From: a virus
Length of the DNA: 49,260 bases
Direction: 5' to 3' (one strand)
IMG/VR virus record: IMGVR_UViG_3300017963_000081
Under the pieces are notes generated by a model. The model made no database searches and was not told where the DNA came from. It saw only the letters and a program-made list of their open reading frames with translations. A program made the position numbers and the translations under genes. Positions 1 to 49,260 of the stretch are shown here, one piece after another. The number at the start of each line of letters is the position of its first letter. Positions within the stretch are counted from its first letter, which is position 1.

Positions 1-123
1 TCACAACGTAAGTTCGATGGAGTAAAGGTCATGTCATTTCTTGCAGGCCCTTTTGAGTTGTACCTCAGTCCGTACGCGGGCGCAACGCCGGGGCAAAGTG
101 CGGTCCCGTTGGGAAAGACGCGA
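1..123. repeat. Terminal direct repeat, left copy. Identical to 49138..49260, so the unit genome is 49137 bp.
   Basis: Bases 1-123 (tcacaacgtaagttcgatgg...gggaaagacgcga) recur exactly at the window end. The repeat spans a stop codon, an intergenic gap and the start of the next ORF. Confidence 0.97.
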
Positions 124-606
124 GACGGGATCGAGATAGAAATTGTCCGTAGTATGCAGCCGATTGCTGGCGACAACTATGGAGCCGAGACGATTCAAGA
201 TTTCATCATGCAGGGCGGGAATTGCTTTCTCAATTTTACCCTGATCGAATGGAATGCCTCCGGCATGTCAACGTTGTTGAACATGTACGGATCGTCTGGA
301 TACGTCGGCCCTTTCGGTTGCAGTGCGAAGGAAGATGCGTTGCAACTGGGGATCGGCTTAATCTCTACCGCATGTGGGACAAACATTACCCCGGACCACT
401 ATCACTTTGAAGGCGTGGTCATTCCGCCAAACTCTCCCATACGCTATGCGCTGAGCAGTCGACTCCGCGAGGTTCCGTTCCGTTTGCAAGCGTTGCCGTA
501 CGATCATAGCGGAAACGACCGTGTTAGCGGACAAGCTTTGGGCGGGTCCAATCCCGCATGGTACGTTGCAGACCCGACAACCGACCCGCGAGCCAACTGG
601 CCGTAA
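31..606 (+). CDS. Virion structural protein, 191 aa (tail tube / tubular-type candidate, function not established)
   Basis: ORF track. Follows the neck genes across the circular junction and sits 4 nt before the next ORF. No family motif recognised. Confidence 0.55.
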   Translation: MSFLAGPFELYLSPYAGATPGQSAVPLGKTRDGIEIEIVRSMQPIAGDNYGAETIQDFIMQGGNCFLNFTLIEWNASGMSTLLNMYGSSGYVGPFGCSAKEDALQLGIGLISTACGTNITPDHYHFEGVVIPPNSPIRYALSSRLREVPFRLQALPYDHSGNDRVSGQALGGSNPAWYVADPTTDPRANWP

Positions 607-1515: not shown

Positions 1516-3263
1516 TGTCCACCGTCGCATACAACGGCTACACGTTCCCTGCCTGGTCGCAAGTCCAGGTCCAGATGAACTACATCCCAACGACGGGCAA
1601 CATCCAAACGAAGTACGTCCAATACGTTGTATCGGTTTCGTCGATTATTTACGTTCCTTGCACAAGCGACAGTGCGTCGCTTGATCAAACCATGTCTCTC
1701 CTCCAAGCGCAGCTTGGCGTGGAGGGTCAAATCCTTTCTATAACCGACGCGGGTTTTGGTGCGAACTTCCGTATCGCCGCTGGAGGAAAAGCAGATGTTG
1801 CGCACGGTCCCAAACCCCGGTCATTCCAGTGGGAGCCTATCGGCACGCGAGCTGCAAGGATCACTTGGGTTGTGGAGCTGACGCTCCCGCGTTGTCCGCA
1901 GCAGCTTACGAACATCGCGGAATATGAATACTCGCTGACGTGGAACATCGCCGAGAACGGACTAACTGTACGGACGATCACCGGTCAGTTGGAAATTGCA
2001 AACAACCACACCCGTCAGGGTTGGCAAGGGTCCTTTGGAACGAAGTTTATTGACACGGCGGATGCGTACCGAAACCGGATCTCCTTCGAACCGTTGGATA
2101 ACTTTCAGCGTAGCCAATCCTTTTCTTTGTCCCCCGACAAACGTGTACTATCGTTCACTATCACCGATTCGGAGATTCCTTCGGACAATCCGTACTACCC
2201 CGGCATCGTTACTCCCCGCGTTTCTTACACTGTGCGAAGCACCGCTGAATACCTTTCCGGTAACTCCGTTTGGGCGGTCAATCTGTCGGGGTCTTTCGAG
2301 GTTGCTCCAGGCTACCACAAACGCACCGCATACCTTGCGATGTTCGAGATTATCCGAACACTTCGCAACGCATTGAAAAACTCCAAGTCTTACGCGGGAC
2401 GCGGCCCCGCGTACACGTCTCCTGGAGATGAAGAAAAGCCGGGCAGCTCGGTTATCTTGCGAAGCTTACAAATCACCGATGAGATATTTTCCCGAAACGT
2501 TTCCATCTCTCTAGAGTGGCACTTACTGTGCTCCCTTAAAGAGCTGATCTCCGCTTCCGGTTTGTGGGATCCTCTACCGAAAGAATCTACGTGGGAACGG
2601 TGGCGCGCGAGCATGGCGAACGTCCAACGTCCCCGTGGATTTGCAAACCTCTTCGACAGGAACGAAGATGTAATCATTGGCCTTTGCAGCACGCAAGGTT
2701 TTGTTTCTCCAGGAGACGACCCGGAAGTCAATCCGCCTTCGGATAAACAGGACCCAACGATTACATCAGATGCGCCACCTCCGGGTCGGAGCTGGCTTAA
2801 TTTTCAAAACGACATTTTCATCGAAGAGGATACGAACACCGCAACCCACCGTAGGCTGTCGGAGCCAAAAAGCTATTCGCAAATGCCGTCCGATCAAGCG
2901 TACCTAAACTCTCAAGTCGGAAACCTTGCGTCCTTCTCTCCGGGGTACAGCGGGGCGTCGCAGGACCGCAAGGTTTCTGTTTTACAAACGCGAGGCGAGC
3001 CGCATTACAACGTGGTTCTGGAAGGGAGAGCTGTCCGCGCCGTGTACGGAATTCCGATTCCTGCTTTGCTCCAGATTGGCGGCTTGGCCATGCAAAACCA
3101 ACGTCCGCAATCTCGAAGGTTCAAATACAAAGAGTTCCGAACAGCGGACAACCTGCCGATGTACGCGGCGGTCTGGCAGATCAAGTATTCCATCCCCGGA
3201 ATACCGGTCGGAGATTTGACACAAAACATTCAACTCGCGGGGGAGGCTTTCAACATCGGATAG
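1515..3263 (+). CDS. Large virion structural protein, 582 aa, function unassigned
   Basis: ORF track. TAATG overlap with the upstream gene and position within the structural run. Confidence 0.6.
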   Translation: MSTVAYNGYTFPAWSQVQVQMNYIPTTGNIQTKYVQYVVSVSSIIYVPCTSDSASLDQTMSLLQAQLGVEGQILSITDAGFGANFRIAAGGKADVAHGPKPRSFQWEPIGTRAARITWVVELTLPRCPQQLTNIAEYEYSLTWNIAENGLTVRTITGQLEIANNHTRQGWQGSFGTKFIDTADAYRNRISFEPLDNFQRSQSFSLSPDKRVLSFTITDSEIPSDNPYYPGIVTPRVSYTVRSTAEYLSGNSVWAVNLSGSFEVAPGYHKRTAYLAMFEIIRTLRNALKNSKSYAGRGPAYTSPGDEEKPGSSVILRSLQITDEIFSRNVSISLEWHLLCSLKELISASGLWDPLPKESTWERWRASMANVQRPRGFANLFDRNEDVIIGLCSTQGFVSPGDDPEVNPPSDKQDPTITSDAPPPGRSWLNFQNDIFIEEDTNTATHRRLSEPKSYSQMPSDQAYLNSQVGNLASFSPGYSGASQDRKVSVLQTRGEPHYNVVLEGRAVRAVYGIPIPALLQIGGLAMQNQRPQSRRFKYKEFRTADNLPMYAAVWQIKYSIPGIPVGDLTQNIQLAGEAFNIG

Positions 3264-5837: not shown

Positions 5838-5972
5838 ATGCCGTTGACAAAGAAAGGACGAAAGGTCATGCGGGCGATGCGTCGTCAGTATGGCTCTTCC
5901 AAAGGAAAGCGGGTATTCTACGCTTCTGCGAACAAAGGAACCATCAAAGGCGTTCATAAGAAACGTGGTTAA
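5838..5972 (+). CDS. Small basic protein, 44 aa (MPLTKKGRKVMRAMRRQYGSSKGKRVFYASANKGTIKGVHKKRG)
   Basis: Below the ORF-track cutoff. ATG lies directly after motif copy 1, and the stop overlaps the 1035-aa gene start (TAATG). Confidence 0.55.
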   Translation: MPLTKKGRKVMRAMRRQYGSSKGKRVFYASANKGTIKGVHKKRG

Positions 5973-11213: not shown

Positions 11214-11438
11214 ATGAGTGGTGTCTGGATTCGAGTCGTCATTGCGGCTCTCAAGATTATCTCCCGGTTCATCGAAGACCCGGAGATGAAGAAGATTCTG
11301 GAAGAGTTAATCGCCATCCTCGAAGAACTCTTCCAGAACCCCAACGCGATCAACGAAGACGATTCAAAGGCCGAACTTGTCGCCCAGTATGAAAAGTGCC
11401 TGCTTCGCTCTCGTAATCGCGACGTATCGAAGATTTGA
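11214..11438 (+). CDS. Hypothetical protein, 74 aa (N-terminal amphipathic/hydrophobic helix)
   Basis: AAAGGAG RBS 8 nt upstream of the ATG. Overlaps the convergent helicase 3' end by 75 nt, which lowers confidence. Confidence 0.35.
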   Translation: MSGVWIRVVIAALKIISRFIEDPEMKKILEELIAILEELFQNPNAINEDDSKAELVAQYEKCLLRSRNRDVSKI

Positions 11439-13706
11439 TTCCTGAACTTGTTCCCATGCAGCGGTCGCGTAAGGGTGCGGGAGCAGATCAGGGCGTAGGA
11501 TAACCACCCGGTCTGCTTCCAACCCCTTCGCGCGGTGAATTGTGCTGAGGATGTAGCCGCCTTCGGTCGCTGCTTCGTCGCTTAGAATCCCGTTGAGCTT
11601 CTTTCGGTAGTCCTTGGCGTTCTTGCAGTCCGTCACCGTCATCTTGACGCACTGTACTCTATCTTCCAGGGCGGCTATCGCCATCTGCGGAGCGTCGTTG
11701 CGGATCAGATGAGCTTCCGCGTGGGCTTGGTACTGGTCTAGCACGTTGATGTGGTTCTCCCAGCTCGTTTCCTTGCCAAAAGCCTTCTTCGCCAGACCGA
11801 CGAATTCGGGAATCATATCCCGACCCCGGACGTAGACGGGGATTTGCTGTGCGAATAGGCGGTTGAACAGCTCGAACAGCGGAGCGTTGGTCCTGCAAAG
11901 CACCATCGCCGGCGGTTCGATATCCTCAATCTCCCTGGAGGTGAAAGCAGCAATACCGTCCGGGGCGTTCGGTGCAGCTTCCAGGTCGGGGACGATAGTC
12001 TGCGCGAGACGGACGACGTTCTTCGGACACCGCCACGAAACCGTCAGCGGCAGCTCGATTAGTCCACGTTCCGTTGCGAGGAGACGTTCCCGAAACCGGG
12101 GAATGCTTTCCGCGTCTGCACCTCTGAAGCCAAAAATAGAATTGCCAGTTGCTATTTCATCTGCGATGTACAAACGTCGACCCCCTTCGGTCGGCGCGAC
12201 TTGCAAACTCCAAACTTCGCCTACATATCTTTTTCTCGTAAACTGGAGTGGTTCCCAGGAACAATCACGAGGGCCTTTGACTCGCACGACCATCATGCAG
12301 CCATTTAGCAGGTTGTACCCGCGACACATGAAAGAGTAATAGCCGACATGTTGGGCGCTTCCTTTTTCCCACATAGGATACCGTGGGTGTCGACCAAACT
12401 CTTGAAGAAGGGCACCGATCCTTTCCGGATTCTTCAAGTCTCGTTCTAGTTCTTCCTCCCAAGATCGGTTCGTCCATTCGAACATGGCCCTTTGCGGGAT
12501 TTGGTACTTCAGGGAGAGCAACCACTCCAGTTTGCGCGCTTCTTGGCGAGTAGGGAATACATCCAAAACCCAAAGACAATCCACCTTTTCTCCGCGAGCA
12601 CGGACGCCCGGTCCAAACCCACAATCCATTTGAAGTTGTGTTGTTCCGATTCGCGGAATATCGCCTGACAACATTAGGTAGACCGCGTGTAGCTTCTTCC
12701 CTTTTTTCGGATCGAAACGTACAAGCCACCGATGTTCGAGTGTTGTGCATGTTCCGTTTCCGTGAATCAAATCGCCGTTGTGTTCGTGGTGTTCGATTTT
12801 TTCTATCTTGCGTCCTTGTGTATTATGGCCCGGAGAATATGTGTCTTTGCTTTTGTAGGTCGCTAACTGGTCCCCGACTTTCAAGTCTTGAATCGGCACG
12901 TAGCCGCGCCCTGTCGCCAAAACCTTAGTCCCCCTGGGTTGGCATTGCTCCGGATCGCCGATCACAATGAACCGTTTCGAAAACTGCGATAGCAATTGAC
13001 GTTGACAGACGTTCAGGTCTTGGGTCTCATCGACGCCCATCGCTCCGAATGGTGCGGGTTTCAACTTGAGCTGGATAGGAAGCCAGCACATGTCATCGTA
13101 ATCGACGCGGTCGGTCAACCGTCGCGACTCTTCGATGCACATGGAGGCCCGCTCCGCAATCTTCTCTTCGTCTTCCAAAGCCATGCCGTAATGCTTCACT
13201 AATGCGAGAATCTCCTCCGGGGTTTCGACAAGACAGCCCTTGGCCAGGCCGACCACCTTCTCCAGGTCGTAGATTAGCTCCCAGTCTTTTATTTCCAGAG
13301 ATCCGTCGGAACGGCCAAAACACTCGCGGTATATGTCGCGGATTTTGTTGAAGTTCACACCGTCGACGGCGTATCCCTTGTCCTTCAACAGTCGAAACCC
13401 GAGAGAGTGGACCGTGCAAGCGAGGGTGGACGGCCCGACCCGGCCTTGCAGCTCGGTCGCGATGAGCTTGGAGAAAGCGACGATTGCTTTCCGGCTCGAT
13501 TTGACCTTGGAGAAACCGTCAACAATCGTGGTTGTCTTTCCAGTCCCAGCACGCGCAATCCCAAGGATATGCTGGTCGGAATTGCTCATTGCGTCCCACA
13601 AATCTTTTTGTTGCTTTGTTGGTTTGTAGGACTTGCGAACTTTCTTCGCGGCGGGGGTTGCTACTTTCGCTTTGCGTCGGATTGTCTTTCGTTTGATTGT
13701 GGCCAC
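11364..13706 (-). CDS. SF1 UvrD/PcrA-like DNA helicase, 780 aa as encoded, interrupted by an intein
   Basis: Walker A GIARAGTGKTTT and Walker B VDETQD. Motif III is split (VIGDPEQ | intein | SIFGFRGAD). Motifs V/VI are STIHRAKGLEADRVVIL and VAITRAKQALFI. Confidence 0.85.
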   Translation of the reverse strand: MATIKRKTIRRKAKVATPAAKKVRKSYKPTKQQKDLWDAMSNSDQHILGIARAGTGKTTTIVDGFSKVKSSRKAIVAFSKLIATELQGRVGPSTLACTVHSLGFRLLKDKGYAVDGVNFNKIRDIYRECFGRSDGSLEIKDWELIYDLEKVVGLAKGCLVETPEEILALVKHYGMALEDEEKIAERASMCIEESRRLTDRVDYDDMCWLPIQLKLKPAPFGAMGVDETQDLNVCQRQLLSQFSKRFIVIGDPEQCQPRGTKVLATGRGYVPIQDLKVGDQLATYKSKDTYSPGHNTQGRKIEKIEHHEHNGDLIHGNGTCTTLEHRWLVRFDPKKGKKLHAVYLMLSGDIPRIGTTQLQMDCGFGPGVRARGEKVDCLWVLDVFPTRQEARKLEWLLSLKYQIPQRAMFEWTNRSWEEELERDLKNPERIGALLQEFGRHPRYPMWEKGSAQHVGYYSFMCRGYNLLNGCMMVVRVKGPRDCSWEPLQFTRKRYVGEVWSLQVAPTEGGRRLYIADEIATGNSIFGFRGADAESIPRFRERLLATERGLIELPLTVSWRCPKNVVRLAQTIVPDLEAAPNAPDGIAAFTSREIEDIEPPAMVLCRTNAPLFELFNRLFAQQIPVYVRGRDMIPEFVGLAKKAFGKETSWENHINVLDQYQAHAEAHLIRNDAPQMAIAALEDRVQCVKMTVTDCKNAKDYRKKLNGILSDEAATEGGYILSTIHRAKGLEADRVVILRPDLLPHPYATAAWEQVQESNLRYVAITRAKQALFILGDKFGL
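12141..12944 (-). mobile_element. Intein (268 aa, residues 255-522 of the helicase precursor)
   Basis: Starts with Cys (CQPRGTKVLATGRGYVPIQDLKVGDQL, block A-like), has TTLEH (block B TxxH) and ends ...YIADEIATGN followed by Ser+1. Removing it restores GDPEQSIFGFRGA. Confidence 0.75.
13287..13325 (+). promoter_or_regulatory. Degenerate copy of the conserved module, antisense inside the helicase CDS
   Basis: TTTTATTTCCAGAGATCCGTCGGAACGGCCAAAAC versus copy 10 TTTTCTCTCCAGAGATCCCGACGGGAACCCCAAAAT, about 28 of 36 positions by eye. Confidence 0.4.
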
Positions 13707-14929: not shown

Positions 14930-14957
14930 ATTATAACCCCCTCTTAGAGTTTGTCAA
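14930..14957 (-). promoter_or_regulatory. Near-consensus sigma70-type promoter (minus strand): TTGACA-N16-TATAAT
   Basis: The minus strand reads ctaTTGACAaactctaagagggggtTATAATcgg. -35 is at 14952-14957 and -10 at 14930-14935. Confidence 0.6.
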
Positions 14958-14981
14958 TAGGGGGTTCCCTAGTATTTTCTT

Positions 14982-15135
14982 AGTAGATTTGTGCAAGAGA
15001 CACTTTGCGGTATCTGGACCCCTCCCGGTAGAGGGGTGATTCCGCAAGTCTAACCCGTTGCTAGACTTGCGAAAACCCCATTTAATGTACATTTGTTCAG
15101 AAATAACATGGATACAGAAAGGGTGATATATACCC
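14982..15135. repeat. Left arm of the inverted duplication (box A 14982-15007, box B 15095-15135)
   Basis: The reverse complement of 14982-15007 equals 17085-17110 (26/26). The reverse complement of 15095-15135 equals 16956-16996 (40/41). The middle ~87 nt is diverged but of equal length. Confidence 0.9.
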
Positions 15136-15755
15136 TATGACCCCCCTAGTGTGGGGTGTGGGTTTCGCATAGTTAGGACGGTGTCGGGATTCTTGGGATT
15201 GCGAAGGTATCCCTGGTCGAGGATACGGTCGAACAGGTTGCGCGTTAAACGGACGTCCTCAAGACAATAGTCAATAACCTCACCGATCCGGTTTTCTTGC
15301 CAAAGTACCGGCGCTAACTCCCCTGATCCCGTTTTCTTGTGTCCCAGATTCACCTCCGCTGTCTTGTCGAGCGAAAATCCACCGTGAGACGGACTGAATT
15401 TATCGGGGTCTAAACGCGCCGCGTTCCACATCTCGCGGAGCAGGTCATACGATGCCATGTCCGCAATCTTGATCCCATTTGCGCGGATCACTTTGTTGTC
15501 GAACCGGATGTTGTTGAATCCGACGAGTGGGATTCGATTCGCCGCTAACTCTTCGAACTCTAGGAGGTTCTCTGCGGTGAAGACGCGGAACCGATCTGTA
15601 GCGTAGTCGTAAGCGCAGAGTACGGAGATGCCCATGTTCTCGTGATCGTCCCATCCCTTGCAGTATTCAATTCCTGCTATCTGCTTTCCAGGAGGTCTTG
15701 GCGGGATCGCTCGAACGATTTCCAGGTCGTAAACCAGCGGAGCTAAGCCTTGCAT
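15135..15755 (-). CDS. DEDD-type 3'-5' exonuclease (RNase H-like fold), 206 aa
   Basis: Motifs VYDLEI (Exo I), VGFNNIRFDN (Exo II) and IDYCLEDV (Exo III). Confidence 0.65.
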   Translation of the reverse strand: MQGLAPLVYDLEIVRAIPPRPPGKQIAGIEYCKGWDDHENMGISVLCAYDYATDRFRVFTAENLLEFEELAANRIPLVGFNNIRFDNKVIRANGIKIADMASYDLLREMWNAARLDPDKFSPSHGGFSLDKTAEVNLGHKKTGSGELAPVLWQENRIGEVIDYCLEDVRLTRNLFDRILDQGYLRNPKNPDTVLTMRNPHPTLGGS

Positions 15756-15767
15756 TTGAAACGTCTC

Positions 15768-16301
15768 CTAAGAGCTTGCGATTCGTTCGATCCGGTTGAC
15801 GCCAACCTTAACGATCCGTTGAATCGCTAACGCGGTCCCCTCTTGGTTGTGGGTGAAAAGCACGGGGACGCCTGACACTATCCACCCGGAAATGGCTCCA
15901 AGAACGTGTGACGGCGTGATCTGGCGAGAGTATCTGTAGATGCTACTGAAAGGGTTCTGAATCTCTTTCCACGTAGTTTCAGCCAGAATCACCCGAATAG
16001 GAAACTCGCGCAGTCGGTAGATTTCCTTCTCGAAACGCGAACGGCCCGAGCCGACGGTCCCGATCAGGTCTCTCCCCGACTTGCGCTCAAAAGAGAATAT
16101 CTCTTCGTAACCGGCAACCGTATAGTCACCGGTTTTGAGAGTGCGTACCGTACAAGGTCCTGGAAGAAAAATCGTAATGCCGGGGAGTGGTTCTCTCCGA
16201 TCAACTACGTACTGAACCTCGTTTGCGGGTTCCGGTGCGGGTGCGCTTTTTGACGATCTTCGGCTTGTTCGTTTTGGTGGACTTCTTTTTCTTTTGGGCA
16301 C
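15768..16301 (-). CDS. ERCC4 (XPF/Mus81)-type nuclease, 177 aa, with a K/R-rich N-terminal extension
   Basis: YVVDRREP...GDYTV...FERKSGRDLIGT...RFEKEIYRL pattern. GTG start at 16301. No in-frame start lies downstream of the upstream gene's stop. Confidence 0.6.
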   Translation of the reverse strand: MPKRKRSPPKRTSRRSSKSAPAPEPANEVQYVVDRREPLPGITIFLPGPCTVRTLKTGDYTVAGYEEIFSFERKSGRDLIGTVGSGRSRFEKEIYRLREFPIRVILAETTWKEIQNPFSSIYRYSRQITPSHVLGAISGWIVSGVPVLFTHNQEGTALAIQRIVKVGVNRIERIASS

Positions 16302-16821
16302 GCTTCTTGCCTTCCTGCATGTTAGCTACGCGACCCTCCCGAAAATCAAATAAAGCTTTCACGTGATCGGGCATTTCCTCCCGAGTCATGGGTCTTCTTC
16401 CCGTACCGATGATGGGTTCCCCGTTGATGTTCCACCTGACGGATTTCTTTTTCGGCTCTACTCCGCGAGTGAATGAGCCGAGGTTGTAAGACTTTCTCAA
16501 GTAAGGAACCGAGATGCGTCCTTCCATAAGCGACTTGGTTGTCTTCGCCTCCGGAAACTCCTCGATAAGAAGTTGCATGATGGAGGGATCGGTAAGCTTC
16601 TTGCTTAGGGGAAACTCTTCGTTCGCCTCGAAGATAACCGCCATGAATCTTGTGATACCTCCTTCAAACGTCTTCCCTTTTGTACGCGGCTTGCAACCTC
16701 TTGTATAGGGGGAGTCGGGGATCCGGTCCACACTAAAGTGGTCCAGTATTTCGGACGCCGCTCCTTGATCTTTCACAACTTTGGGAGATTTCTTGTCAGG
16801 CATTCTCTCGCTCTCTTTCAC
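16201..16821 (-). CDS. Hypothetical protein, 206 aa (or 200 aa from ATG 16803), with a K/R-rich C-terminal tail
   Basis: ORF track. The tail reads EGKKRAQKKKKSTKTNKPKIVKKRTRTGTRKRGSVRS. The 3' 101 nt overlap the ERCC4 ORF in another frame. Confidence 0.55.
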   Translation of the reverse strand: MKESERMPDKKSPKVVKDQGAASEILDHFSVDRIPDSPYTRGCKPRTKGKTFEGGITRFMAVIFEANEEFPLSKKLTDPSIMQLLIEEFPEAKTTKSLMEGRISVPYLRKSYNLGSFTRGVEPKKKSVRWNINGEPIIGTGRRPMTREEMPDHVKALFDFREGRVANMQEGKKRAQKKKKSTKTNKPKIVKKRTRTGTRKRGSVRS

Positions 16822-16856
16822 TTAACTTTTGACACCTCGCTTAGACAGAACCCTCC

Positions 16857-16885
16857 CGCTCCACCCACCAGTGGAGCGTCTTTTT
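16857..16885 (+). terminator. Terminator-like hairpin in plus orientation, inside the leader region of the minus-strand cassette
   Basis: cgctccac-ccacca-gtggagcg (8-bp stem) followed by TCTTTTT on the + strand. Confidence 0.4.
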
Positions 16886-16907
16886 CGGGGTCCGTCAATA
16901 CTGTGCG

Positions 16908-16934
16908 ATTGTATACTAAAAAACACAAAGTCAA
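16908..16934 (-). promoter_or_regulatory. Candidate promoter for the exonuclease/ERCC4 cassette (minus strand): TTGACT-N15-TACAAT
   Basis: The minus strand reads ctaTTGACTttgtgttttttagtaTACAATcgc. The spacer is short. Confidence 0.35.
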
Positions 16935-16955
16935 TAGGGTTACTGTAGTATCCGG

Positions 16956-17110
16956 GGGTATATATCACCCTTTCTGTATCCATGTTACTTCTGAACACCC
17001 ATACACTTAACCCCCCGATATCTAAACTGTTGGAAAATAACGACTTACAAAATCGTCCCTTAGTTGGGGGGTGGTAGCATACCTCAAAGTGTCTCTTGCA
17101 CAAATCTACT
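16956..17110. repeat. Right arm of the inverted duplication (box B 16956-16996, box A 17085-17110)
   Basis: See the left arm. Here the same box B ... box A order points toward the + strand promoter at 17135. Confidence 0.9.
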
Positions 17111-17134
17111 TATGACGTCCCTAATAAAGACGGG

Positions 17135-17163
17135 TTGACAGAGACCCTAACAATATATAGTAT
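17135..17163 (+). promoter_or_regulatory. Near-consensus sigma70-type promoter (plus strand): TTGACA-N17-TAGTAT
   Basis: gggTTGACAgagaccctaacaatataTAGTATgt, about 25 nt downstream of box A, the same spacing as on the other arm. Confidence 0.6.
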
Positions 17164-24944: not shown

Positions 24945-27026
24945 ATGGTTCAAATCGTTTCACAACGCACACTTAGAGATACGCCGGAACCGCTCCGACC
25001 CTACGTGTTCCACGGTGCGGATTTCGAAAAAACGACAACGAAGGAAGTGAACGGTTTTTGTCCGATCTGCAAAGCGGAGACGAAACGAAAGCGAATGGGA
25101 GGCTTGTATGTCAATACCGAGAAAGGAGTTTGGAAATGCGTGCATTGTGAAAAAGGCGGCAATATCTCCGACTTCCAAAGAAACCTCTATCAGAGCTACA
25201 AACCCCTCACCGAGGCTACGCATTACGAGAAGCTTTCCGAACTCAAACCCCCTTGCACCCCCGACGCTTTGAAAGCCGCTGGTCTTGTTTGGGATAACTT
25301 TCTAGACCGGTGGCTTATCCCCTATTATGATGGTGACGGACGCTTCAAATCGGTCCGCGCATGGAAACCTCCCACCGGGAAAATCTACACAACCCCCGGC
25401 GACAAGCAGACTCTTTGGAATGTTCAAGCCCTAACAGGCAAGGATACACTGTACCTAACAGAAGGGGAGTGGGACGCTATCGCATTGGCCCCTCTACTTG
25501 AACGAAATGAGGGGGTCATTTCTTCTCCAGGAGCACACTTCCAACCTCGCTGGTCGCCCTACTTCAGCGACCGAAAAGTCTACCTGCTATACGACAACGA
25601 CAAGGCAGGAGAGACGGCGGCCAAGAACGCTGCATTTGTTCTCCAGGGATCCGCACGGTCGGTCCACGTTATCAAGTGGCCGCCCGATTGGAAAACAGGA
25701 TACGACGTTCGCGACTACGTCAAAGAGAACCTTGAGCTGGACGTCGAACCCAAACAGATTCTGGAAGGCTTACGCTTTCTCAGCGTCGTTCCGGAAACCG
25801 GATACAGTCCGCTCAGCAACGGGAAGCTTGAAAAGCCCCTCTACAAACCGCTTCCGGATAAGCGACCGACTTACAGTCAGATCCTCAAAGAGGTTCAAGA
25901 AACCTATGCGTTCGGCGACCCTCAAGTCTACGACACCCTTGCGGTGATCTACGGAACCATTTGGAGCAACTACATCTCCGGTGATCCAGTCTGGATGTTT
26001 ATTGTCGGCCCTTCGGGCTGTGGAAAAACCACCTTCGTTGCAACTGCAAGTAGAGCACACGTAGTGAAGTTTCAAAGTTCGCTCTCCCCCGGCGGCCTGG
26101 TCTCCGGTTTCAAACCGAAGGACGGGAGCGACCCTTCCCTCATTGCACAAATCTTGGGCAAGACCTTGATCGTCAAAGACTTCACCGAAGTGTTGGACGA
26201 ACCGGAACAAGTTCGCGACCGAATCATCGCAATCCTTCGAGGCGGTTTCGACGGACGCATCGACCGCGACTACGGAAACGGGGTGTCCCGAAAGTACGAA
26301 GGATTCTTCAGCGTCGTGGCGGCGGTTACGGACAAAATCCACTCAATCCAACGCGCCGATCTAGGGGAACGGTTCCTGAAATATCAGATGCTCTCAACGA
26401 GGCGACAACAATTCGCATTCCGCGAACAAATTCTAGCCGCAGTCCGCGCAACCACCTCCCAACACGACGTGGATCATTACATCCGCGAAATGGTCCGCGA
26501 GCATTTCAACCATCTGCCCGATGCAATCCCCGAAGTTCCTACGTGGCTCATAGACAAAGTCAGCCCCCTGGCCGATCTCGTCGAAGCAATGCGTGGAAAA
26601 GTCGTCCGCTCTGGGGCGTTAGTTTCCCATCCGCCATCCGGCGGGGTAGGAACCCGCGTCGCAAAGCAACTCGTCAAGCTTGCACAAGGAATATCACTTG
26701 CATGGGGAAAGCGGGCTATTCCCCGATCCGTCTATCCAATCCTTCGCAAGTGTGCTCTCGATACCGCCTTCGGCTGGCAGTCAGAAATCATCACGCATCT
26801 CCTAAGTCATGGTGTGCAAACGATTACCGAAGTCAGGAAGGCCCTCGGGATGCCCCGCTCGACCTGCGAAGTCCGCTTGAAAGACCTTCGGTATTTGGGC
26901 ATAGTCAGCGAGATCGAACTCCCCCCGGAGGATCGCGGCAGCGGTGGCCGTGCTCGCCAATCGCAGATCGCGTACGATATTGTCCCGGAGGTTCGAAAGC
27001 TTTGGAAGGAAATCGCGGACAAGTGA
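24945..27026 (+). CDS. Bifunctional DNA primase / P-loop helicase, 693 aa
   Basis: Zn finger CPICKAE...CVHCEKGG. TOPRIM motifs LTEGEWDAIAL and LLYDNDKAGE. Walker A FIVGPSGCGKTTF. C-terminal winged-helix-like region. Confidence 0.8.
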   Translation: MVQIVSQRTLRDTPEPLRPYVFHGADFEKTTTKEVNGFCPICKAETKRKRMGGLYVNTEKGVWKCVHCEKGGNISDFQRNLYQSYKPLTEATHYEKLSELKPPCTPDALKAAGLVWDNFLDRWLIPYYDGDGRFKSVRAWKPPTGKIYTTPGDKQTLWNVQALTGKDTLYLTEGEWDAIALAPLLERNEGVISSPGAHFQPRWSPYFSDRKVYLLYDNDKAGETAAKNAAFVLQGSARSVHVIKWPPDWKTGYDVRDYVKENLELDVEPKQILEGLRFLSVVPETGYSPLSNGKLEKPLYKPLPDKRPTYSQILKEVQETYAFGDPQVYDTLAVIYGTIWSNYISGDPVWMFIVGPSGCGKTTFVATASRAHVVKFQSSLSPGGLVSGFKPKDGSDPSLIAQILGKTLIVKDFTEVLDEPEQVRDRIIAILRGGFDGRIDRDYGNGVSRKYEGFFSVVAAVTDKIHSIQRADLGERFLKYQMLSTRRQQFAFREQILAAVRATTSQHDVDHYIREMVREHFNHLPDAIPEVPTWLIDKVSPLADLVEAMRGKVVRSGALVSHPPSGGVGTRVAKQLVKLAQGISLAWGKRAIPRSVYPILRKCALDTAFGWQSEIITHLLSHGVQTITEVRKALGMPRSTCEVRLKDLRYLGIVSEIELPPEDRGSGGRARQSQIAYDIVPEVRKLWKEIADK

Positions 27027-34184: not shown

Positions 34185-34995
34185 GATGTGGCGACGGTCC
34201 CGCCGTCAATGGTACGCGGAGATCATCGACGCGATGTATGCTTGTCTGCAAGAGTTGGGCCATGAAGTTTCCGAAGGGGATCACCTCCGCGACGACGCGA
34301 TCAACGTCGTATTCTGTTGGCAGATGTGGGAACGGATGCCGGCCCTGGAACTTTCCCGCTACCGACTCGTCGCGTTCCAATCGGAACAACTTCCGCCCGG
34401 CGGCTACCTCGAAAAAGCTCCGCCTTGGTACTTGGAGTCGTTACGCCAAGCCGAAGCGGTTTGGGACTACAGCTCGTCCAACGTTTCCGTGTTGGCTGCT
34501 CACGGAATCGCGGCGAGCTGGGTCCCTTTTTACTACCATCCTTCTCTCCAGTTTGTCCCGACCGGCAATATTAAACAGGACATTCCTATCCTGTTTTACG
34601 GGTGGAGGAGCGACAGGAGAGATAACATGATAGAGCGGCTTCGCCCGCTCAGTATCGAATACTTCCCCGCAGGGTTGTGGGGGGACTATCGAAACGCCGT
34701 CATACAACGATCAAAGATCGTATTGAACGTGCACTGGTACGAATCCGCGTTGACGCCGCACCTTCGCTTTGCTCCGCTGTTAGCAAATCGCGTCGCGATA
34801 GTGTCCGAACGATGCGTTGACAATCCCTACGGGGATGCAATCGCGGAGGCAGACTACGACGAACTCCCCGACCTGCTCCGGTATTACCTGGAGGATGAGC
34901 ACGAACGGCTTGCTCTCGCGGTGCGTGGACACTCCCGGTTCAAGAACATGAAGTTTCACCATGCTTTGCAAGAGGCGATTAAGAAGCTCCCTTAG
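34162..34995 (+). CDS. Glycosyltransferase (CgeB-like / GT1 C-terminal domain type), 277 aa
   Basis: ILFYGWRSDRRDNMIERL...SKIVLNVHWYE...LRFAPLLANRVAIVSE...YDELPDLLRYYLEDEHERLALAVRG, the pattern of Glyco_trans_1_2-type domains. Confidence 0.5.
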   Translation: MKFHLTARMWRRSRRQWYAEIIDAMYACLQELGHEVSEGDHLRDDAINVVFCWQMWERMPALELSRYRLVAFQSEQLPPGGYLEKAPPWYLESLRQAEAVWDYSSSNVSVLAAHGIAASWVPFYYHPSLQFVPTGNIKQDIPILFYGWRSDRRDNMIERLRPLSIEYFPAGLWGDYRNAVIQRSKIVLNVHWYESALTPHLRFAPLLANRVAIVSERCVDNPYGDAIAEADYDELPDLLRYYLEDEHERLALAVRGHSRFKNMKFHHALQEAIKKLP

Positions 34996-36278
34996 TCGGT
35001 CAGCGTAATCAGACGCGCGTCGGGGAGACTTGCGTTGCTGATCTTCTTGTGCGGGTCGATGATTGTGCCCAACACGACGCCGGAGGCGGTTGTAATCGTG
35101 ACGGCATCGACCGCCTGCGAAGCATCGAAGGTTGCTTCTTCGTTGCTCATAACGAGTGTTCCAATGTCGGGAGAACTGCCGCCGCTCTGGCACTCTACCG
35201 TTCCGGGTCCGCTGATGGTGATGGTTCCCGCGACGGTGCAGCCCTTCAACATACGGAACGTCCCGGATTGGACGGTGATGGTGGTGCTTGCGTGTGCCAC
35301 CGCAGGTTCGATGATCAACGTTCCTCCGAGAACTTGAATCGTTGCCGCTGTACTTCCGATGGTTGTGGGGTTCCAGATAGTCAACGTCCCACCACTGACT
35401 TCAATCTCCGAACCATCGAGCGTGCTTGCCGCTCCACCTTCTTTACTAATCTCAACCGTCCCGCCGCGGACTTCAATATCGGTACCGCCCGTCGTTCCGA
35501 TCAATTGCAACGCGGCGCGGTTGGTATCCAAAGCTCCACCAGTGTTGTGAACCACAATCGCCATCGCACTGGTGAGCGATTTGATTCGCATCCGACCGGA
35601 GCCGCTCCCATCACCGCGACCGATAGTCAACGCGGTTGCGTCCAGCTCTAGATGCCGATCCAAAAACTCCGCATACCCGTTGGGGTTGTCATCTGGGAGA
35701 CCGATAGTGGACGGCCCGAAGCTCTGGTCGATGTACACGTGCGCGAGCGGTGTGGTCAGTCCGTTCAACGCATCAAGGTCATAAAGAATGGGCGGCCCGC
35801 CTTGGATGTACAACGTATCTCCATCCGACGGTGCAGCGGGGGAACCTCCCGCGTTGTCTTCGTAATTGGCCGCCGCTCCCCAAACGTTCGGTCCCGCGTT
35901 CGCGGTGACGCTACCCTTGGTGATTGTGCCCGAGCCGGTCTTGGCTACGCCAAGCTGCGACGCTCCCGCGACATCTTCGTCAAACGGTGTGCCGGGCGTG
36001 TCCGCTGTCAGGTACACAAGACCGCTCCCTTCATCCGACGCGGTAATTCCGACCGCTCGCGGAGTGGTGCTCGCGTTGAATGCCGCGACTAGCCCCGCCG
36101 CAACATCGCTGACCGTGGGCGAAGCGGCTGTTTCCTGGTACGTCACCCGTCCCACCTCGACGCTGTCGTGATAGAAAACGATGGAGTACGTATCGTTCTG
36201 TGCGGGGGAGCCGCCAATTGTAACGCTGATGACTTGTGCGACGGGTTCGGCCCGTCCGGTCCAACGAAGCGTGGCCAT
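34992..36278 (-). CDS. Beta-helical repeat protein (fibre/adhesin-like), 428 aa
   Basis: ORF track. The C-terminal two thirds are G/T/A-rich with repeats such as GGTLTIWNP, GGTLIIEP and SGTFRMLKG. Confidence 0.5.
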   Translation of the reverse strand: MATLRWTGRAEPVAQVISVTIGGSPAQNDTYSIVFYHDSVEVGRVTYQETAASPTVSDVAAGLVAAFNASTTPRAVGITASDEGSGLVYLTADTPGTPFDEDVAGASQLGVAKTGSGTITKGSVTANAGPNVWGAAANYEDNAGGSPAAPSDGDTLYIQGGPPILYDLDALNGLTTPLAHVYIDQSFGPSTIGLPDDNPNGYAEFLDRHLELDATALTIGRGDGSGSGRMRIKSLTSAMAIVVHNTGGALDTNRAALQLIGTTGGTDIEVRGGTVEISKEGGAASTLDGSEIEVSGGTLTIWNPTTIGSTAATIQVLGGTLIIEPAVAHASTTITVQSGTFRMLKGCTVAGTITISGPGTVECQSGGSSPDIGTLVMSNEEATFDASQAVDAVTITTASGVVLGTIIDPHKKISNASLPDARLITLTD

Positions 36279-36308
36279 TGAAAAATTCCTTATGGGGTTT
36301 GTGACGCT

Positions 36309-36518
36309 TTAACCGCGCGGAGGTACTTTTCCCAGGTCCAAACCGTAAGGCCCTTTTAACCGCCGCGCCTGTCTTTGGTATCGTATCGACTTTGCCATTT
36401 GTTTTCGGACGTCAGAGCCTCGTTGGAATACACTTGGGTGCGTTCGTTTTGACGTCCCGTGTCGCGAAAACCTCTGGACAGTTTTGACAACGCTCCGACG
36501 TTTCAGTTTCTTGGCCAT
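36309..36518 (-). CDS. Small basic protein, 69 aa (MAKKLKRRS...)
   Basis: ORF track. Its SD (GGAGAG) is the reverse complement of the CTCTCC core of motif copy 7. Confidence 0.5.
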   Translation of the reverse strand: MAKKLKRRSVVKTVQRFSRHGTSKRTHPSVFQRGSDVRKQMAKSIRYQRQARRLKGPYGLDLGKVPPRG

Positions 36519-36572
36519 AGTTATCTCTCCAGTAGTCCTGACGGGACGTTCAAAAATAGACTAGTGTCTAAT
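36519..36572 (+). promoter_or_regulatory. Conserved intergenic module, copy 7. Orphan copy lying between two minus-strand genes.
   Basis: TTATCTCTCCAGtaGTCCTgacGGGACgTTCAAAAATAGACtagtGTCTaat. Confidence 0.75.
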
Positions 36573-36723
36573 AATTTTTCTTGTGGCGTCGCAGCGTTTC
36601 AGCAGCCCACTTCCGGAGCTTCTTCCCTTGCGGGGTTGTCTTGCTTGCTTTGCGCGCTTTCTTGACTTGGGTTTGAGAGTAGGCCGGAAGCCACTTCATG
36701 ATCTTGCGAAGTTTCTTTGCCAT
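36568..36723 (-). CDS. Small basic protein, 51 aa (MAKKLRKIMKWLPAYSQTQVKKARKASKTTPQGKKLRKWAAETLRRHKKNY)
   Basis: Below the ORF-track cutoff. ATG is 3 nt downstream of the DUF1580 gene stop. Shares the MAKKL(K/R) N-terminus with 36309..36518. Confidence 0.45.
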   Translation of the reverse strand: MAKKLRKIMKWLPAYSQTQVKKARKASKTTPQGKKLRKWAAETLRRHKKNY

Positions 36724-36726
36724 CGC

Positions 36727-36987
36727 TCAACTCCGTAACTGATCCTCTTGGTTCAACTTCAGGATGAACCGACCTATCGCCTCCTCCGACGTGTAGATCG
36801 TTCCTCCAACCCTTGCGGTTTCCAACCGGACGCCCCGGATGCCGCGTTTGGCCCATTTCCGGATGGTGTCAACGCTATGCGGTCCCCCCGGAATCTTTGC
36901 GTTAGCGTACCGCAATCGCACAAGCCGTTCTCTATTTGCGTCTAGCATTTTGTCCACTCCGTACCAGGTTTGTCCACTTTTATCCAT
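36727..36987 (-). CDS. DUF1580-type helix-turn-helix DNA-binding protein, 86 aa
   Basis: SVDTIRKWAKRGIRGVRLETARVGGTIYTSEEAIGRFI matches the G.RLE...VGG...TS.EA..RF signature I associate with planctomycete DUF1580 proteins. Confidence 0.6.
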   Translation of the reverse strand: MDKSGQTWYGVDKMLDANRERLVRLRYANAKIPGGPHSVDTIRKWAKRGIRGVRLETARVGGTIYTSEEAIGRFILKLNQEDQLRS

Positions 36988-37075
36988 TTTATCCTACTTT
37001 TTCCGCCCGTCCTAGACGTTGTAAAGGGGGATTGCCGAGGGGATTTCTGGTAGGATTCGGGCGGAGGCCGAGATC

Positions 37076-37207
37076 ATGATGGGAAAAACGATGCGTCGTC
37101 GGATGCGGAAACGGGTTCGAATGACGCCGAAATTCAAGCCGCCCGCTGGCGGCAGCGCTCTTCAGCGACCGGTATCGACCCGTCGCCAAATCGGTCGGAG
37201 GATGTGA
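37076..37207 (+). CDS. Small Arg/Lys-rich protein 1 of a tandem trio, 43 aa (MMGKTMRRRMRKRVRMTPKFKPPAGGSALQRPVSTRRQIGRRM)
   Basis: Below the ORF-track cutoff. GGAGG RBS. The stop overlaps the next start (TGATG). Confidence 0.45.
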   Translation: MMGKTMRRRMRKRVRMTPKFKPPAGGSALQRPVSTRRQIGRRM

Positions 37208-37359
37208 TGTTGCGTGGAAGACCTGTCTCGATGAAAACTGCTAAGAAGTTAGCTCGTCGAATGCCTGGTGGCGTTTCGGCAGTAACGCTTCGAAAGCGAC
37301 TCAATGCAAAGCCGAAGAATACGCGGAGAGCTGCAGCGCTTAAAGCGATGAAGGGTTAG
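37207..37359 (+). CDS. Small Arg/Lys-rich protein 2, 50 aa (MLRGRPVSMKTAKKLARRMPGGVSAVTLRKRLNAKPKNTRRAAALKAMKG)
   Basis: Preceded by TCGGAGGATGTGATG, the same 15-mer that precedes protein 3. Confidence 0.45.
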   Translation: MLRGRPVSMKTAKKLARRMPGGVSAVTLRKRLNAKPKNTRRAAALKAMKG

Positions 37360-37375
37360 TTGATCGGAGGATGTG

Positions 37376-37513
37376 ATGGGCGGAATGGCGATGAAACCGA
37401 AGACGAAGACCTTGCTCCGTCACGGTCAGCGTCGCAAGAAGTTCAGCCGAACGACTCGGGGTCAAATCGCCAGACTTCTCAAAGAATCGCGGAGACGCCA
37501 GAAGGGTTATTAA
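37376..37513 (+). CDS. Small Arg/Lys-rich protein 3, 45 aa (MGGMAMKPKTKTLLRHGQRRKKFSRTTRGQIARLLKESRRRQKGY)
   Basis: Preceded by TCGGAGGATGTGATG. Stop lies 1 nt before the GTG start of the scaffold/protease gene. Confidence 0.45.
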   Translation: MGGMAMKPKTKTLLRHGQRRKKFSRTTRGQIARLLKESRRRQKGY

Positions 37514-37514
37514 C

Positions 37515-38846
37515 GTGCCGTTCTTCGACAAGCAAATCTTGAAGCCTGGAACCTACAACGTCCCCGCCCCTGATGGGACGATGCAAAAGGTCCACCTCAG
37601 CGCGGAACGGTTCAAGCGGTGGGTTGACAACTTCAAGAAAATGGCCGCCGCAGGTCTAAACATCCCCGCCCCGTGGCGACACGACGAGAAAGCGATTCCT
37701 CTCCGGTTGTCGGCAGACCAGGGCGATACCGACGCTTTCCAGAACGGTGGTTTCTGGCGAGACCTTTGGGTGGACAACAACGGAACCCTTCACGGTCGCG
37801 TGGAGGTTCCGGATGAAGAGACCGCGAAGCAGAAGATCGGCAAGACCGTCCGCGAGGTCTCTCCGCTGGTCAAAGGGAAGTGGGCCGACGGAGCGGGGAA
37901 CGAATACGAGGATGCGATCACGCACATCGCGTTGGTCACGCATCCGGTGGCACAAGCTCAGGAGAACTTCACGCCTATCGCTGCGTCGCTTGCTTTCTCC
38001 CACTCGCAACTGCTGGTAGCAGACGAGGAGTTGGTGCCGCCCGAGTTGCAATTTCAAGTCGTGCAGGAACCCGCAACAGAAATGCCGGAGCCGACATCCG
38101 CATCCAACGCAACTGTCCAGGATGCGGTTGGGGTGCTCCGCGAGCTGGGGCTTAACCTGCCGGACGATACTACCCCGGAGAACATTCTGGAAAGGATAGT
38201 CACTGCGGGTCTTGCCCTTCGAAGTGAACGGGAACGATCACCCGATACGAACGCACCCCCAGTGGGCGCGACAGAGCCGAGAGGTCCAATCACGATGAGT
38301 CAACAGAATCAGACCGTACCATCCCCATCGTCGTCGGCGGGGCCGAACGCGCAGGCGGCCCCTCCGACTTCACCTCCCGCAACGGTCGCGTTGTCGCAAG
38401 AGCATCAAGCCGCTCTGAACTTCGCGAGCAAGGTAGGTCGACAGATGTACATTGACCGGATTGACAAGCTGGTCAATTCGGGACGGATCACGCCGGACTA
38501 CGCCAACAAGACGTTGTCCCCCTACCTGAGCGACTTGCGGCTGTCGTTTGACGCGGATGGCAACCCAATGTCCGGCGAGCTGGACAAGCTATTGCTTGCC
38601 CTGGAAGCATTGCCGCAGAACCAAGTGATCGGTGGATCGGTTGTCTCCGGGATCCGCAGCAACGGTCAGCAGATGTTTTCGTTGGCAACGCAACCGACCG
38701 AAGTTCCCAACGAACACTTGTGGCGGGACAACACGGCGGAGCCGTCCGAAGACGAAGCGATTGACATTGTCAATCAGCAGTTTCAGAACACCGGTCGCAG
38801 CCACTTTATCCGGGGTCCGCAACGCATGACCGGACGTCCGGTTTAA
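37515..38846 (+). CDS. Head maturation protease / scaffolding protein candidate, 443 aa
   Basis: The N-terminus FFDKQILKPGTYNVPAPDGTMQKVHLSAERFKRWVDNFKKM...IPAPWRHD resembles Mu gpI/DUF2213-type proteins. The Pro/Ala/Ser-rich middle, helical C-terminus and position upstream of the decoration and capsid genes fit. Confidence 0.45.
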   Translation: MPFFDKQILKPGTYNVPAPDGTMQKVHLSAERFKRWVDNFKKMAAAGLNIPAPWRHDEKAIPLRLSADQGDTDAFQNGGFWRDLWVDNNGTLHGRVEVPDEETAKQKIGKTVREVSPLVKGKWADGAGNEYEDAITHIALVTHPVAQAQENFTPIAASLAFSHSQLLVADEELVPPELQFQVVQEPATEMPEPTSASNATVQDAVGVLRELGLNLPDDTTPENILERIVTAGLALRSERERSPDTNAPPVGATEPRGPITMSQQNQTVPSPSSSAGPNAQAAPPTSPPATVALSQEHQAALNFASKVGRQMYIDRIDKLVNSGRITPDYANKTLSPYLSDLRLSFDADGNPMSGELDKLLLALEALPQNQVIGGSVVSGIRSNGQQMFSLATQPTEVPNEHLWRDNTAEPSEDEAIDIVNQQFQNTGRSHFIRGPQRMTGRPV

Positions 38847-48595: not shown

Positions 48596-49162
48596 ATGTT
48601 CTCCGCTTTCCTATCCGCCGTCCGCAATCGTCTGTTGGAAGAGGTCGGAGATTTGAATGAAGACAACTGCGAGCTGCGGATTCGCGGGATGCCGCCGCCG
48701 TGGGCTGGAGAAGAATACGTCGGGTTGTACGCTACGGGCTGGGAGCCGGGCGAGCTGTCGCGAATCTCTGATAGGGCAATTGATGAGATTTACAGCTTTG
48801 CTGTTACGATTACCCGGCGTATCGGTTTTTCTCCAGGGGACCGACGGAGCGGCGAAATTTACTACATCGTCTCCGATGGGATGGAAGCTCGCGCGAGACA
48901 AATCACTGCCGCAATCCTGAAAAAGCGGCTCGAAATATGCGGCGACGCAAACACACGACTTCAGCAAATCACCGAACGGGGTACAATAACCAACGGGCTA
49001 TTTGTTGAACCCCTCCGCTGGCAGGGAACGGACGCGGAACCCCGCGAGGTGGGTCCGGAGTGGTTTTCCGCAAACCCCGACGATAACAGGGCTTACGGCT
49101 TTGCTCTTGATATTCGATTCGGAGACATCCGTAGGATTCACAACGTAAGTTCGATGGAGTAA
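48596..49162 (+). CDS. Neck/tail completion candidate, 188 aa
   Basis: ATG 48596 lies 2 nt after the upstream TGA. Last gene before the circular junction. Confidence 0.45.
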   Translation: MFSAFLSAVRNRLLEEVGDLNEDNCELRIRGMPPPWAGEEYVGLYATGWEPGELSRISDRAIDEIYSFAVTITRRIGFSPGDRRSGEIYYIVSDGMEARARQITAAILKKRLEICGDANTRLQQITERGTITNGLFVEPLRWQGTDAEPREVGPEWFSANPDDNRAYGFALDIRFGDIRRIHNVSSME

Positions 49163-49260
49163 AGGTCATGTCATTTCTTGCAGGCCCTTTTGAGTTGTAC
49201 CTCAGTCCGTACGCGGGCGCAACGCCGGGGCAAAGTGCGGTCCCGTTGGGAAAGACGCGA
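49138..49260. repeat. Terminal direct repeat, right copy. Includes a truncated duplicate (49168..49260) of the CDS starting at 31.
   Basis: Exact 123-nt identity to 1..123, read directly. Confidence 0.97.

Follow-up and report, generated by a model that had tools for sequence, protein, structure and literature searches.

The genome examined here is a virus sequence of 49,260 nucleotides (nt), IMG/VR record IMGVR_UViG_3300017963_000081, which is referred to in its full length as the window. Two non-coding arms of 154 and 155 nt lie in it in inverted orientation and bracket a three-gene nuclease cassette, and each arm holds two blocks, box A and box B, that are common to both. A predicted sigma70 promoter points outward from each arm, P_left on one side and P_right on the other. 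The arms are tentatively interpreted as paired cis-regulatory sites for a phage-specific factor, and the locus is classed with paired regulatory repeats that accompany promoters, here at the border of a phage rearrangement. The main internal arguments for positioned functional boxes are their equal spacing from the two promoters and the kept length of the spacer between them. Comparison with relatives places the arms exactly at the borders of a gene block that appears to have been inverted, and points to boxes that evolve in concert within the genome.

Architecture of the arms

When up to three mismatches are allowed, box A and box B each occur twice in the window (0 copies expected for either), and the copies are distributed over the two arms as listed in Table 1. 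The coordinates and counts that an earlier, sequence-only reading of this DNA had given for the boxes and spacers all hold. The sole mismatch within box B is a transition at 15103. Between the boxes lie spacers of nearly equal length that are 45% identical to each other. Aligned together with their promoter sides, the arms are 66% identical overall, with the identity concentrated in match runs of 32 and 26 nt; two match runs of at least 26 nt were obtained in none of 100,000 column shuffles of this alignment. Arm conservation is mosaic, with an unevenness far beyond chance. A repeat search of the window also recovers both arms as an inverted pair. Because an independent ENA assembly is identical to the window over the 20.6 kb compared, the arm structure is not an assembly artefact. 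Source samples of the phage are ERZ27256798, SRR6963591 and a JGI sample.

Box A has no dyad symmetry and is 62% A+T. Box B has only a 4-bp GGGT/ACCC clamp around ATATAT, with ATATATA as a core of 7-8 bp, and it holds two CAGAAA motifs at a distance of 17 nt. A small open reading frame (ORF) that could begin at an ATG in box B was discarded, as it has no Shine-Dalgarno sequence and is not kept in the closest relative, a contig designated L013 that is described below. The spacers differ in structure. The minus strand of the left arm folds at -53.5 kcal/mol (z = -4.9) owing to its two spacer hairpins, and the right arm gives z-scores of -0.55 and -1.9; the left spacer is probably a terminator or insulator after the cassette.

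The outward promoters P_left and P_right are the best sigma70 matches in the genome, and P_left, the -35 context of which (CCCTATTGACA) is common to promoters of relatives, scores 12/12 against the consensus, as no other site in the window does. A promoter scan bore out both of them, as well as a weaker promoter belonging to the cassette itself beside box B, which is present as a consensus match (P_cas1); P_right is conserved in L013. The distance from the -35 element to box A is exactly 24 nt in both arms. The promoters had been regarded as part of the duplication, but they are not demonstrably so: the alignment of P_left with P_right is no better than that of shuffled sequence (p ~0.5) and the two 24-nt linkers have only 7 of 24 bases in common. 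The exact distance, kept despite unrelated linkers, speaks for boxes that are under selection as cis elements and tied to the promoters, and the same spacing to non-homologous promoters, taken together with spacers of 87 and 88 nt at so low an identity, argues that they are positioned functional elements.

Relative to predicted starts, box A is centred at -71.5 and -72.5 and spans about -59 to -85, a position that would correspond to the geometry of a class-I activator site. The boxes had also been proposed to be UP elements or operators. Box A is not contiguous with the -35 element, as the A/T-rich sequence of a UP element at -40 to -60 would be, and separate A/T-rich stretches fill the linker between the two; the boxes are not UP elements. 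Nor are they classical operators, since they lie clear of the promoters and form no palindromic arrays.

P_left also resembles P_cas1 (p ~0.005), largely through the generic CTATTGAC context of the -35 element in this phage group. The extended form, C-CTATTGAC(A/T), is found at five predicted promoters of the phage group, with occurrences in the window at 14953-14962 (-), 16930-16939 (-) and 16893-16900 (-) and in relatives at L013 ~3013-3022, L016 ~335-345 (-) and L036 ~5960-5972 (-). The orthologous P_right promoters of the window and L013 share GGGTTGACAG instead. The two -35 contexts may reflect a preference of the host RNA polymerase or two promoter classes.

Table 1. Positions of the repeat elements, predicted promoters and cassette genes in the window.
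Feature	Position	Strand	Description
Box A, left	14982-15007	+	AGTAGATTTGTGCAAGAGACACTTTG; 26/26 versus right copy
Box A, right	17085-17110	-	26/26 versus left copy
Box B, left	15095-15135	+	40/41 versus right copy; final base = first base of the exonuclease stop codon
Box B, right	16956-16996	-	40/41 versus left copy
Left spacer	15008-15094		87 nt; two strong hairpins, CCCCTC/GAGGGG and GCAAGTCTA/TAGACTTGC
Right spacer	16997-17084		88 nt; weakly structured
Left linker	14958-14981		24 nt; A/T-rich stretch, small G5/C3 hairpin
P_left	14957..14930	-	TTGACA-N16-TATAAT, 12/12, outward (predicted)
P_right	17135..17163	+	TTGACA-N17-TAGTAT, 10/12, outward (predicted)
P_cas1	16934..16908	-	TTGACT-N15-TACAAT, 21 nt from right box B (predicted)
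P_cas2	16898..16870	-	TTGACG-N17-TCCACT, upstream of p200 (predicted)
Gene 1, p200	16201-16803	-	200 aa; uncharacterised family, no Pfam match
Gene 2, ERCC4-type nuclease	15768-16301	-	177-aa ORF; Pfam ERCC4 2.3e-10, PHROG 3490
Gene 3, DEDD/RNase H-like 3'-5' exonuclease	15135-15755	-	206 aa

Comparison with the closest relative

The phage is isolated, in that the boxes, the region and most of the neighbouring proteins are without a close match in INPHARED, IMG/VR, JGI metagenomes and GTDB. Exact and gapped box patterns gave no match in IMG/VR, the JGI metagenomes or the GTDB genomes, and a blastn search gave none in the INPHARED phages. Protein-anchored searches for further carriers of the arms (ERCC4, helicase and an alignment of p200, the product of the first cassette gene) and a genome-contig search with Pyr_excise, the product of the first gene after P_right, likewise returned none, and the 183-aa protein encoded next to P_left has no indexed homologue. 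Homologues of Pyr_excise are plentiful, and 457 were found for the exonuclease; the former are not syntenic, the phage contexts of the latter are not syntenic, and neither set is accompanied by the repeat.

The best homologue of p200 (47% identity) lies on L013, a 3.9-kb Logan contig, in which Pyr_excise followed by UDG diverges from p200 followed by ERCC4 across a 415-nt intergenic region. Proteins of the window phage and L013 are 46-64% identical. The intergenic region is the orthologue of the right-arm region of the window. L013 keeps the -35 context of P_right, GGGTTGACAG, with TAAATT as its -10 element (TTGACA-N17-TAAATT), a C-run/G-run hairpin, the motif CGCAA(A/G)TCGTTA, and TAGTGTAC..GTGTTCA and GGTG(T)ATATATACCCC, with which the two ends of box B (GTGTTCA and GGTG-ATATATACCC in the left copy of the window) are conserved. 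The TATTGAC -35 of P_cas2 aligns with TATTGACA-N17/18-TACACT of L013. The 22-nt centre of box B is not kept, and only 9 of the 26 bases of box A (35%) are identical at the corresponding position.

In the spacers, each arm is 55% identical to L013, compared with the lower value between the arms, and the sites shared exclusively by two of the three sequences number seven for left and right, 16 for left and L013 and 15 for right and L013. Within noise the three sequences are equidistant, which dates the duplication to about the time when the window phage and L013 separated. With a duplication of this age, boxes that are identical between the arms yet divergent from L013 point to concerted evolution within the genome, in a lineage-specific form.

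GC-clamped ATATAT palindromes were also noted 140-190 nt upstream of p200-family genes in relatives. In L017 at ~363-378 the sequence is CCACAATATATTGTGG, a perfect 16-mer palindrome, and in L013 at 2951-2966 it is GGTGTATATATACCCC, with seven of eight pairs; GGGTGATATATACCC, at the inner end of box B in the window, is a less symmetric counterpart.

Inversion of the cassette

The locus of a further, more distant relative, L036, is clearly syntenic with the window, with protein identities of 44% for portal, 35% for helicase, 34% for p200, 37% for UDG, 30% for PD-(D/E)XK, 37% for ERF, 34% for PolA and 30% for primase. Its helicase gene diverges from a series of genes in the order p200, a 107-aa gene, UDG, PD-(D/E)XK, ERF, PolA and primase. 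In L035 and L037, which are also more distant, p200 is likewise co-directional with UDG and/or PD-(D/E)XK; in all three it stands first or nearly first in that block, and no inverted repeat surrounds p200 in L035, L036 or L037. The orientation of p200 in the window and L013 is opposite to that in these three. Because p200 is reversed with respect to three syntenic outgroups, an ancestor shared by the window phage and L013 would, by parsimony, have undergone inversion of the p200-ERCC4(-exonuclease) block; and because the outgroups are co-directional and lack the repeat, the arms are taken to mark the borders of this old inversion. Neither these borders nor the lineage-specific, rather than broadly conserved, character of the boxes had been recognized in the sequence-only reading.

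The inverted duplication was either created with the inversion, for example by staggered breaks, or was itself the mediator of the inversion. In the staggered-break model, which has been described for Drosophila inversions, the sequence of one breakpoint would be copied to both ends of the block. The anatomy of the locus fits this model, since the left copy of box B runs into the 3' end of the final cassette gene, the right box B lies beside the cassette promoter and box A faces outward on both sides. The likeness extends to a block that is inverted relative to outgroups and flanked by an inverted duplication of one breakpoint; the model differs in that it concerns origin only and leaves two identical sub-blocks amid decayed sequence unexplained. 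A duplication followed by repeat-mediated inversion would be expected to give the same anatomy.

Proposed function of the boxes

In the proposed mechanism, the spacers would have diverged almost to saturation after the inversion, and the left spacer would have gained strong hairpins that terminate cassette transcripts, which would make it a terminator or insulator separating P_left from the cassette. Boxes A and B would have been kept identical between the arms as recognition sites for a phage-specific DNA-binding factor. From a fixed position, this factor would act on P_left and P_right, in the right arm the cassette promoter, at 21 nt from box B, would be a further target, and the factor may bridge the arms across 1.8 kb in the manner of lambda CI between OL and OR.

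By position only, as the gene beside the right arm, p200 is the leading candidate for this factor. The family comprises 207 homologues (full HMMER search) and has the strongly conserved core LFEANE..LP..KKLTD..I....EFP...G..TVN..R..YN.G..T.G..P...S.RYN..G. An AlphaFold2 model built from a 40-sequence alignment reached a predicted local distance difference test (pLDDT) score of 84.8, compared with 41 for a single-sequence model, and predicts a core of four helices, a beta-hairpin, a 30-residue helix and a basic K/R tail. The protein formerly suggested as the binder, a DUF1580 protein with a helix-turn-helix (HTH), is encoded 20 kb away and nothing links it to the arms; p200 is the more natural, though putative, candidate. 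A further step, in which the p200 product binds co-evolving boxes A and B, loops its own operon over 1.8 kb and co-ordinates both outward early promoters, a long-range switch like that of lambda OL-OR but assembled from unrelated parts, is considered improbable in this specific form.

Several points weigh against paired regulatory sites. No binding protein was found, and p200 has no Pfam or PDB match, nothing significant in Foldseek and no detectable HTH. The boxes show neither palindromic symmetry nor convincing internal repeats; their 12-mers occur elsewhere in the genome at chance level only, with no extra copies or half-sites; and blocks of 26 and 41 nt of perfect identity exceed the length of ordinary transcription-factor sites. 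Box B lies far from the outward promoters, ~170-210 nt upstream (about -172 to -214 relative to the starts), and the transcription starts used here are predicted ones, placed 7 nt after each -10 element. There is only one close relative, of which the second arm was not recovered, so that co-evolution and recent gene conversion are not separable, and the direction assigned to the inversion depends on a parsimony argument from five loci. Of the duplicated regulatory architecture first proposed, the two arms, their mosaic conservation and the fixed promoter spacing are retained, and the identification as operators or UP elements and the role of DUF1580 are given up.

Alternative explanations

The arms might instead be a neutral scar of the inversion, in which the perfect blocks are functionless patches of recent, short gene conversion by the ERF and PD-(D/E)XK proteins. 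The phage does encode ERF and a PD-(D/E)XK exonuclease, the identity of box A with L013 is at the level of random sequence, as expected of a block that is unconstrained between phages, and no binding protein, further site or structure was found. However, this explanation needs two separate and very recent tracts, with 0 and 1 differences, around an 87-nt stretch that has decayed to 45% identity, and one of the tracts would have to stop exactly at the edge of the homology. It also leaves unexplained the exact 24-nt linker to two non-homologous promoters and the kept spacer length, and is judged rather unlikely.

A bipartite replication origin is less probable still. The boxes would be initiator sites that flank the strand switch, recognised by the phage primase-helicase or by some other initiator, with activation from the strong promoters alongside; the ori/crr arrangement of satellite phage P4 offers a comparison. 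Origin-initiator pairs typically stay identical inside one replicon and differ from one relative to the next, and the locus sits where the early and replication operons diverge, with a conserved GC-clamped ATATATA at the end of box B. The local minimum of the cumulative GC skew at 17-18 kb would agree with an origin, but it coincides with the change of gene strand and is therefore uninformative. Similarly, the C terminus of the primase-helicase (24945-27026) gives winged-helix matches that are weak and below the Pfam cut-offs. No iteron array is seen beyond the weak pair of CAGAAA motifs, and the AT-rich element, at 7-8 bp, is short for an unwinding region.

It is more doubtful again that the arms serve as a substrate for recombination, in which exact inverted repeats of 32-41 bp would let the 1.8-kb cassette flip by homologous recombination or through an unrecognised site-specific recombinase, the symmetry of the arms ensuring that the cassette reads into the same arm sequence either way. 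Across lineages, p200 is found either way round with respect to the replication operon, the arms coincide exactly with the borders, and the phage has ERF and an exonuclease. A Logan contig (k=31) from SRR6963591, L002, corresponds to window positions 15106-16985 and has both ends 30 nt inside box B; such breaks are the expected behaviour of a k=31 graph at any inverted repeat of at least that length and are no evidence of flipping. On the other side, Pfam and PHROGs scans of the cassette, its neighbours and ~55 ORFs of the genome found no integrase, invertase, resolvase, tyrosine recombinase or transposase, in agreement with the earlier remark that no invertase is visible. The window, the ENA assembly and L013, all of them assemblies, show a single orientation. 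Since the promoters point outward and the cassette has its own, a flip would not switch expression. Finally, the L013 contig is unbroken through the box-B equivalent at k=31, so that its phage has no exact repeat of at least 31 nt there.

A role in transcript initiation or processing is comparably doubtful. Box B might be an inward promoter (ATAACA-N18-TGaTATATA) that yields sense cassette transcripts from the right arm and, from the left arm, antisense transcripts ending at a plus-strand terminator (hairpin 16857-16878); alternatively, the boxes might pair in a long minus-strand precursor to form a processing stem of 26 + 41 bp around the cassette, as in rRNA operons. At 41 nt, box B is as large as a complete promoter, and its end falls 4-7 nt short of the expected start, but the -35 element is poor and the -10 element lacks the invariant final T. 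The terminator-like hairpin at the far end of the cassette would suit the antisense transcript, but is not conserved as a terminator in L013. The lone mismatch of box B, a transition giving G.U on the minus strand, counts in favour of the stem; however, no minus-strand promoter is evident upstream of 17110 for a two-arm precursor, RNAalifold finds no conserved structure and Rfam gives no match.

Three element classes were considered and rejected: terminal inverted repeats of a transposon or miniature inverted-repeat transposable element, as the above scans found no transposase, there is no target-site duplication outside the arms (the flanks, TATTTTCTT on one side and TATGACGTC on the other, share no direct repeat), and the right junction is conserved in a relative with ~47% protein identity; a Gin/Hin-type invertible segment, as the same scans found no recombinase gene in or beside the segment; and a structured RNA or antitermination element (nut, put), as Rfam has no match at the gathering threshold in the whole window or at E <= 10 within the arms, RNAalifold of the two arms with L013 gives weak consensus structures with almost no covariation (1-2 compensatory pairs) and the boxes lie upstream of the predicted promoters.

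Comparison with characterized systems

The lambda immunity region has the order PL/OL - rexB - rexA - cI - PRM/OR/PR and is closed by a CI-mediated loop between OL and OR. In both systems, two strong outward promoters ~2 kb apart have related inverted cis elements beside each, and the three-gene leftward operon between them has a promoter divergent from the right-hand one and an end that abuts the left element. Unlike OL and OR, the boxes lie upstream of the promoters, box A 24 nt before each -35 element and box B ~140 nt further out, and they are not arrays of 17-bp pseudo-palindromes; no further half-sites occur in the genome. Moreover, the first gene of the operon, p200, which holds the place of the repressor gene, does not encode a recognisable CI or HTH repressor, the other genes encode nucleases, and no integrase or lysogeny module was found in this phage.

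The invertible segments of phages, such as Mu G and P1 C with Gin and Cin, and other site-specific inversion switches have inverted repeats exactly at the borders of a kilobase-sized gene block, as is the case here. They differ from the present locus, in which no recombinase gene was found and only one orientation is seen. Its repeats are mosaic and of greater length, and since a promoter of the block's own lies inside it, inversion would not act as a switch.

The PeSLs (promoter-early stem-loops) of T4-type phages are repeated intergenic modules composed of a consensus sigma70 promoter, an upstream A/T tract and a G/C stem-loop terminator; they lie between a stop codon and the next gene, are tied to the recombinational rearrangement of gene cassettes, and are short and mostly direct repeats, with ~50 copies per genome, in hyperplastic regions (PMC2839356, PMC4122927). 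The left arm with P_left has the same make-up, running from the stop codon at 15135 through strong hairpins and an A/T tract to the 12/12 promoter. In contrast, the right arm has a promoter but weak structure, there are exactly two copies, which are inverted and ~155 nt long, and the conserved parts are the two upstream boxes rather than the promoter or stem-loop.

Cassette genes and genomic setting

The exonuclease has weak Pfam matches to RNase_H_2 and DNA_pol_B_exo2 (E ~0.004) and a match to the PHROG DNA polymerase exonuclease at 6e-06. The 5' end of the ERCC4 ORF overlaps the 3' end of p200 by ~100-130 nt in another frame and is K/R-rich in both; the overlaps lie at 16201-16301 (-) in the window, at 3563-3696 in L013 and at 519-652 in L014, the contigs from samples SRR17658283 and SRR17658268. 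The start of the 177-aa ORF is predicted, and the ENA gene caller gives only a 74-aa product for ERCC4. A PADLOC search for the cassette as a defence system gave no match. In relatives, the p200-family gene is found among early replication and recombination genes, adjoining those for UvrD helicase, UDG and PD-(D/E)XK: in L016 and L017 it is separated by 300-440 nt from a divergent upstream gene, in L036 its divergent neighbour is the helicase gene and in L037 it follows a 474-nt gap.

The terminator-like element at 16857-16885 (+) looks like a canonical intrinsic terminator and consists of an 8-bp G+C stem followed by the T-run TCTTTTTCGG. It is antisense to the 5' untranslated region of the cassette, has no plus-strand gene upstream and would be in keeping with antisense transcription over the cassette.

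The two ends of the window (1-123 and 49138-49260) form an exact direct repeat of 123 nt, which marks it as the complete genome of a phage, either assembled as a circle or terminally redundant, with a unique length of 49,137 bp. The arms sit at its major strand-switch point. The P_left operon (-) encodes the 183-aa protein (ATG at 14797), a zinc-ribbon protein, a 65-aa protein and a UvrD-type helicase. The P_right operon (+) begins with Pyr_excise, a pyrimidine-dimer glycosylase homologue (GTG at 17221), followed by small genes, UDG, a PD-(D/E)XK nuclease, ERF, PolA and the primase-helicase, and continues into the packaging and structural genes. No sigma factor or RNA polymerase was found in the scans of the ~55 ORFs, and a tRNA scan found none.

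A second minus-strand block, at 34992-37531 (-), interrupts the otherwise rightward genome. It encodes a 428-aa protein without a Pfam, PHROG or PADLOC match, a 69-aa protein with a weak Gam-like match, three small ORFs and the DUF1580 protein (36727-36987, E 4e-09). DUF1580 is a family described from Planctomycetes, a hint at the host; judged by this gene, the phage lineage, which has no cultured relatives, is possibly one of Planctomycetes.

The UvrD-type helicase (780 aa, 11364-13706, -) has an insertion of ~250 aa at residues ~256-509, which is absent from the 494-510-aa homologues of L035 and L036, where tblastn alignments split at residues 255/510. The insert begins with CQPRGTKVLATG, ends in ATGNS and has an intein-like look; a weak Hint_2 match (E 0.052) is the sole profile support, and there is no PDB match.

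Significance

What the comparison with relatives adds is evidence that the cassette was inverted long ago and that the boxes evolve in concert; no new kind of mechanism is demanded. Should the boxes be no more than patches of gene conversion, the locus would still mark an old inversion cleanly but would otherwise be ordinary. If they are functional, the inversion of a gene block would have been made viable by a control region duplicated to both breakpoints, and the locus would present paired cis sites that co-evolve within a genome while diverging between relatives. The boxes would then also provide a first functional handle on a widespread, unannotated family of phage early genes that has no structural neighbour.

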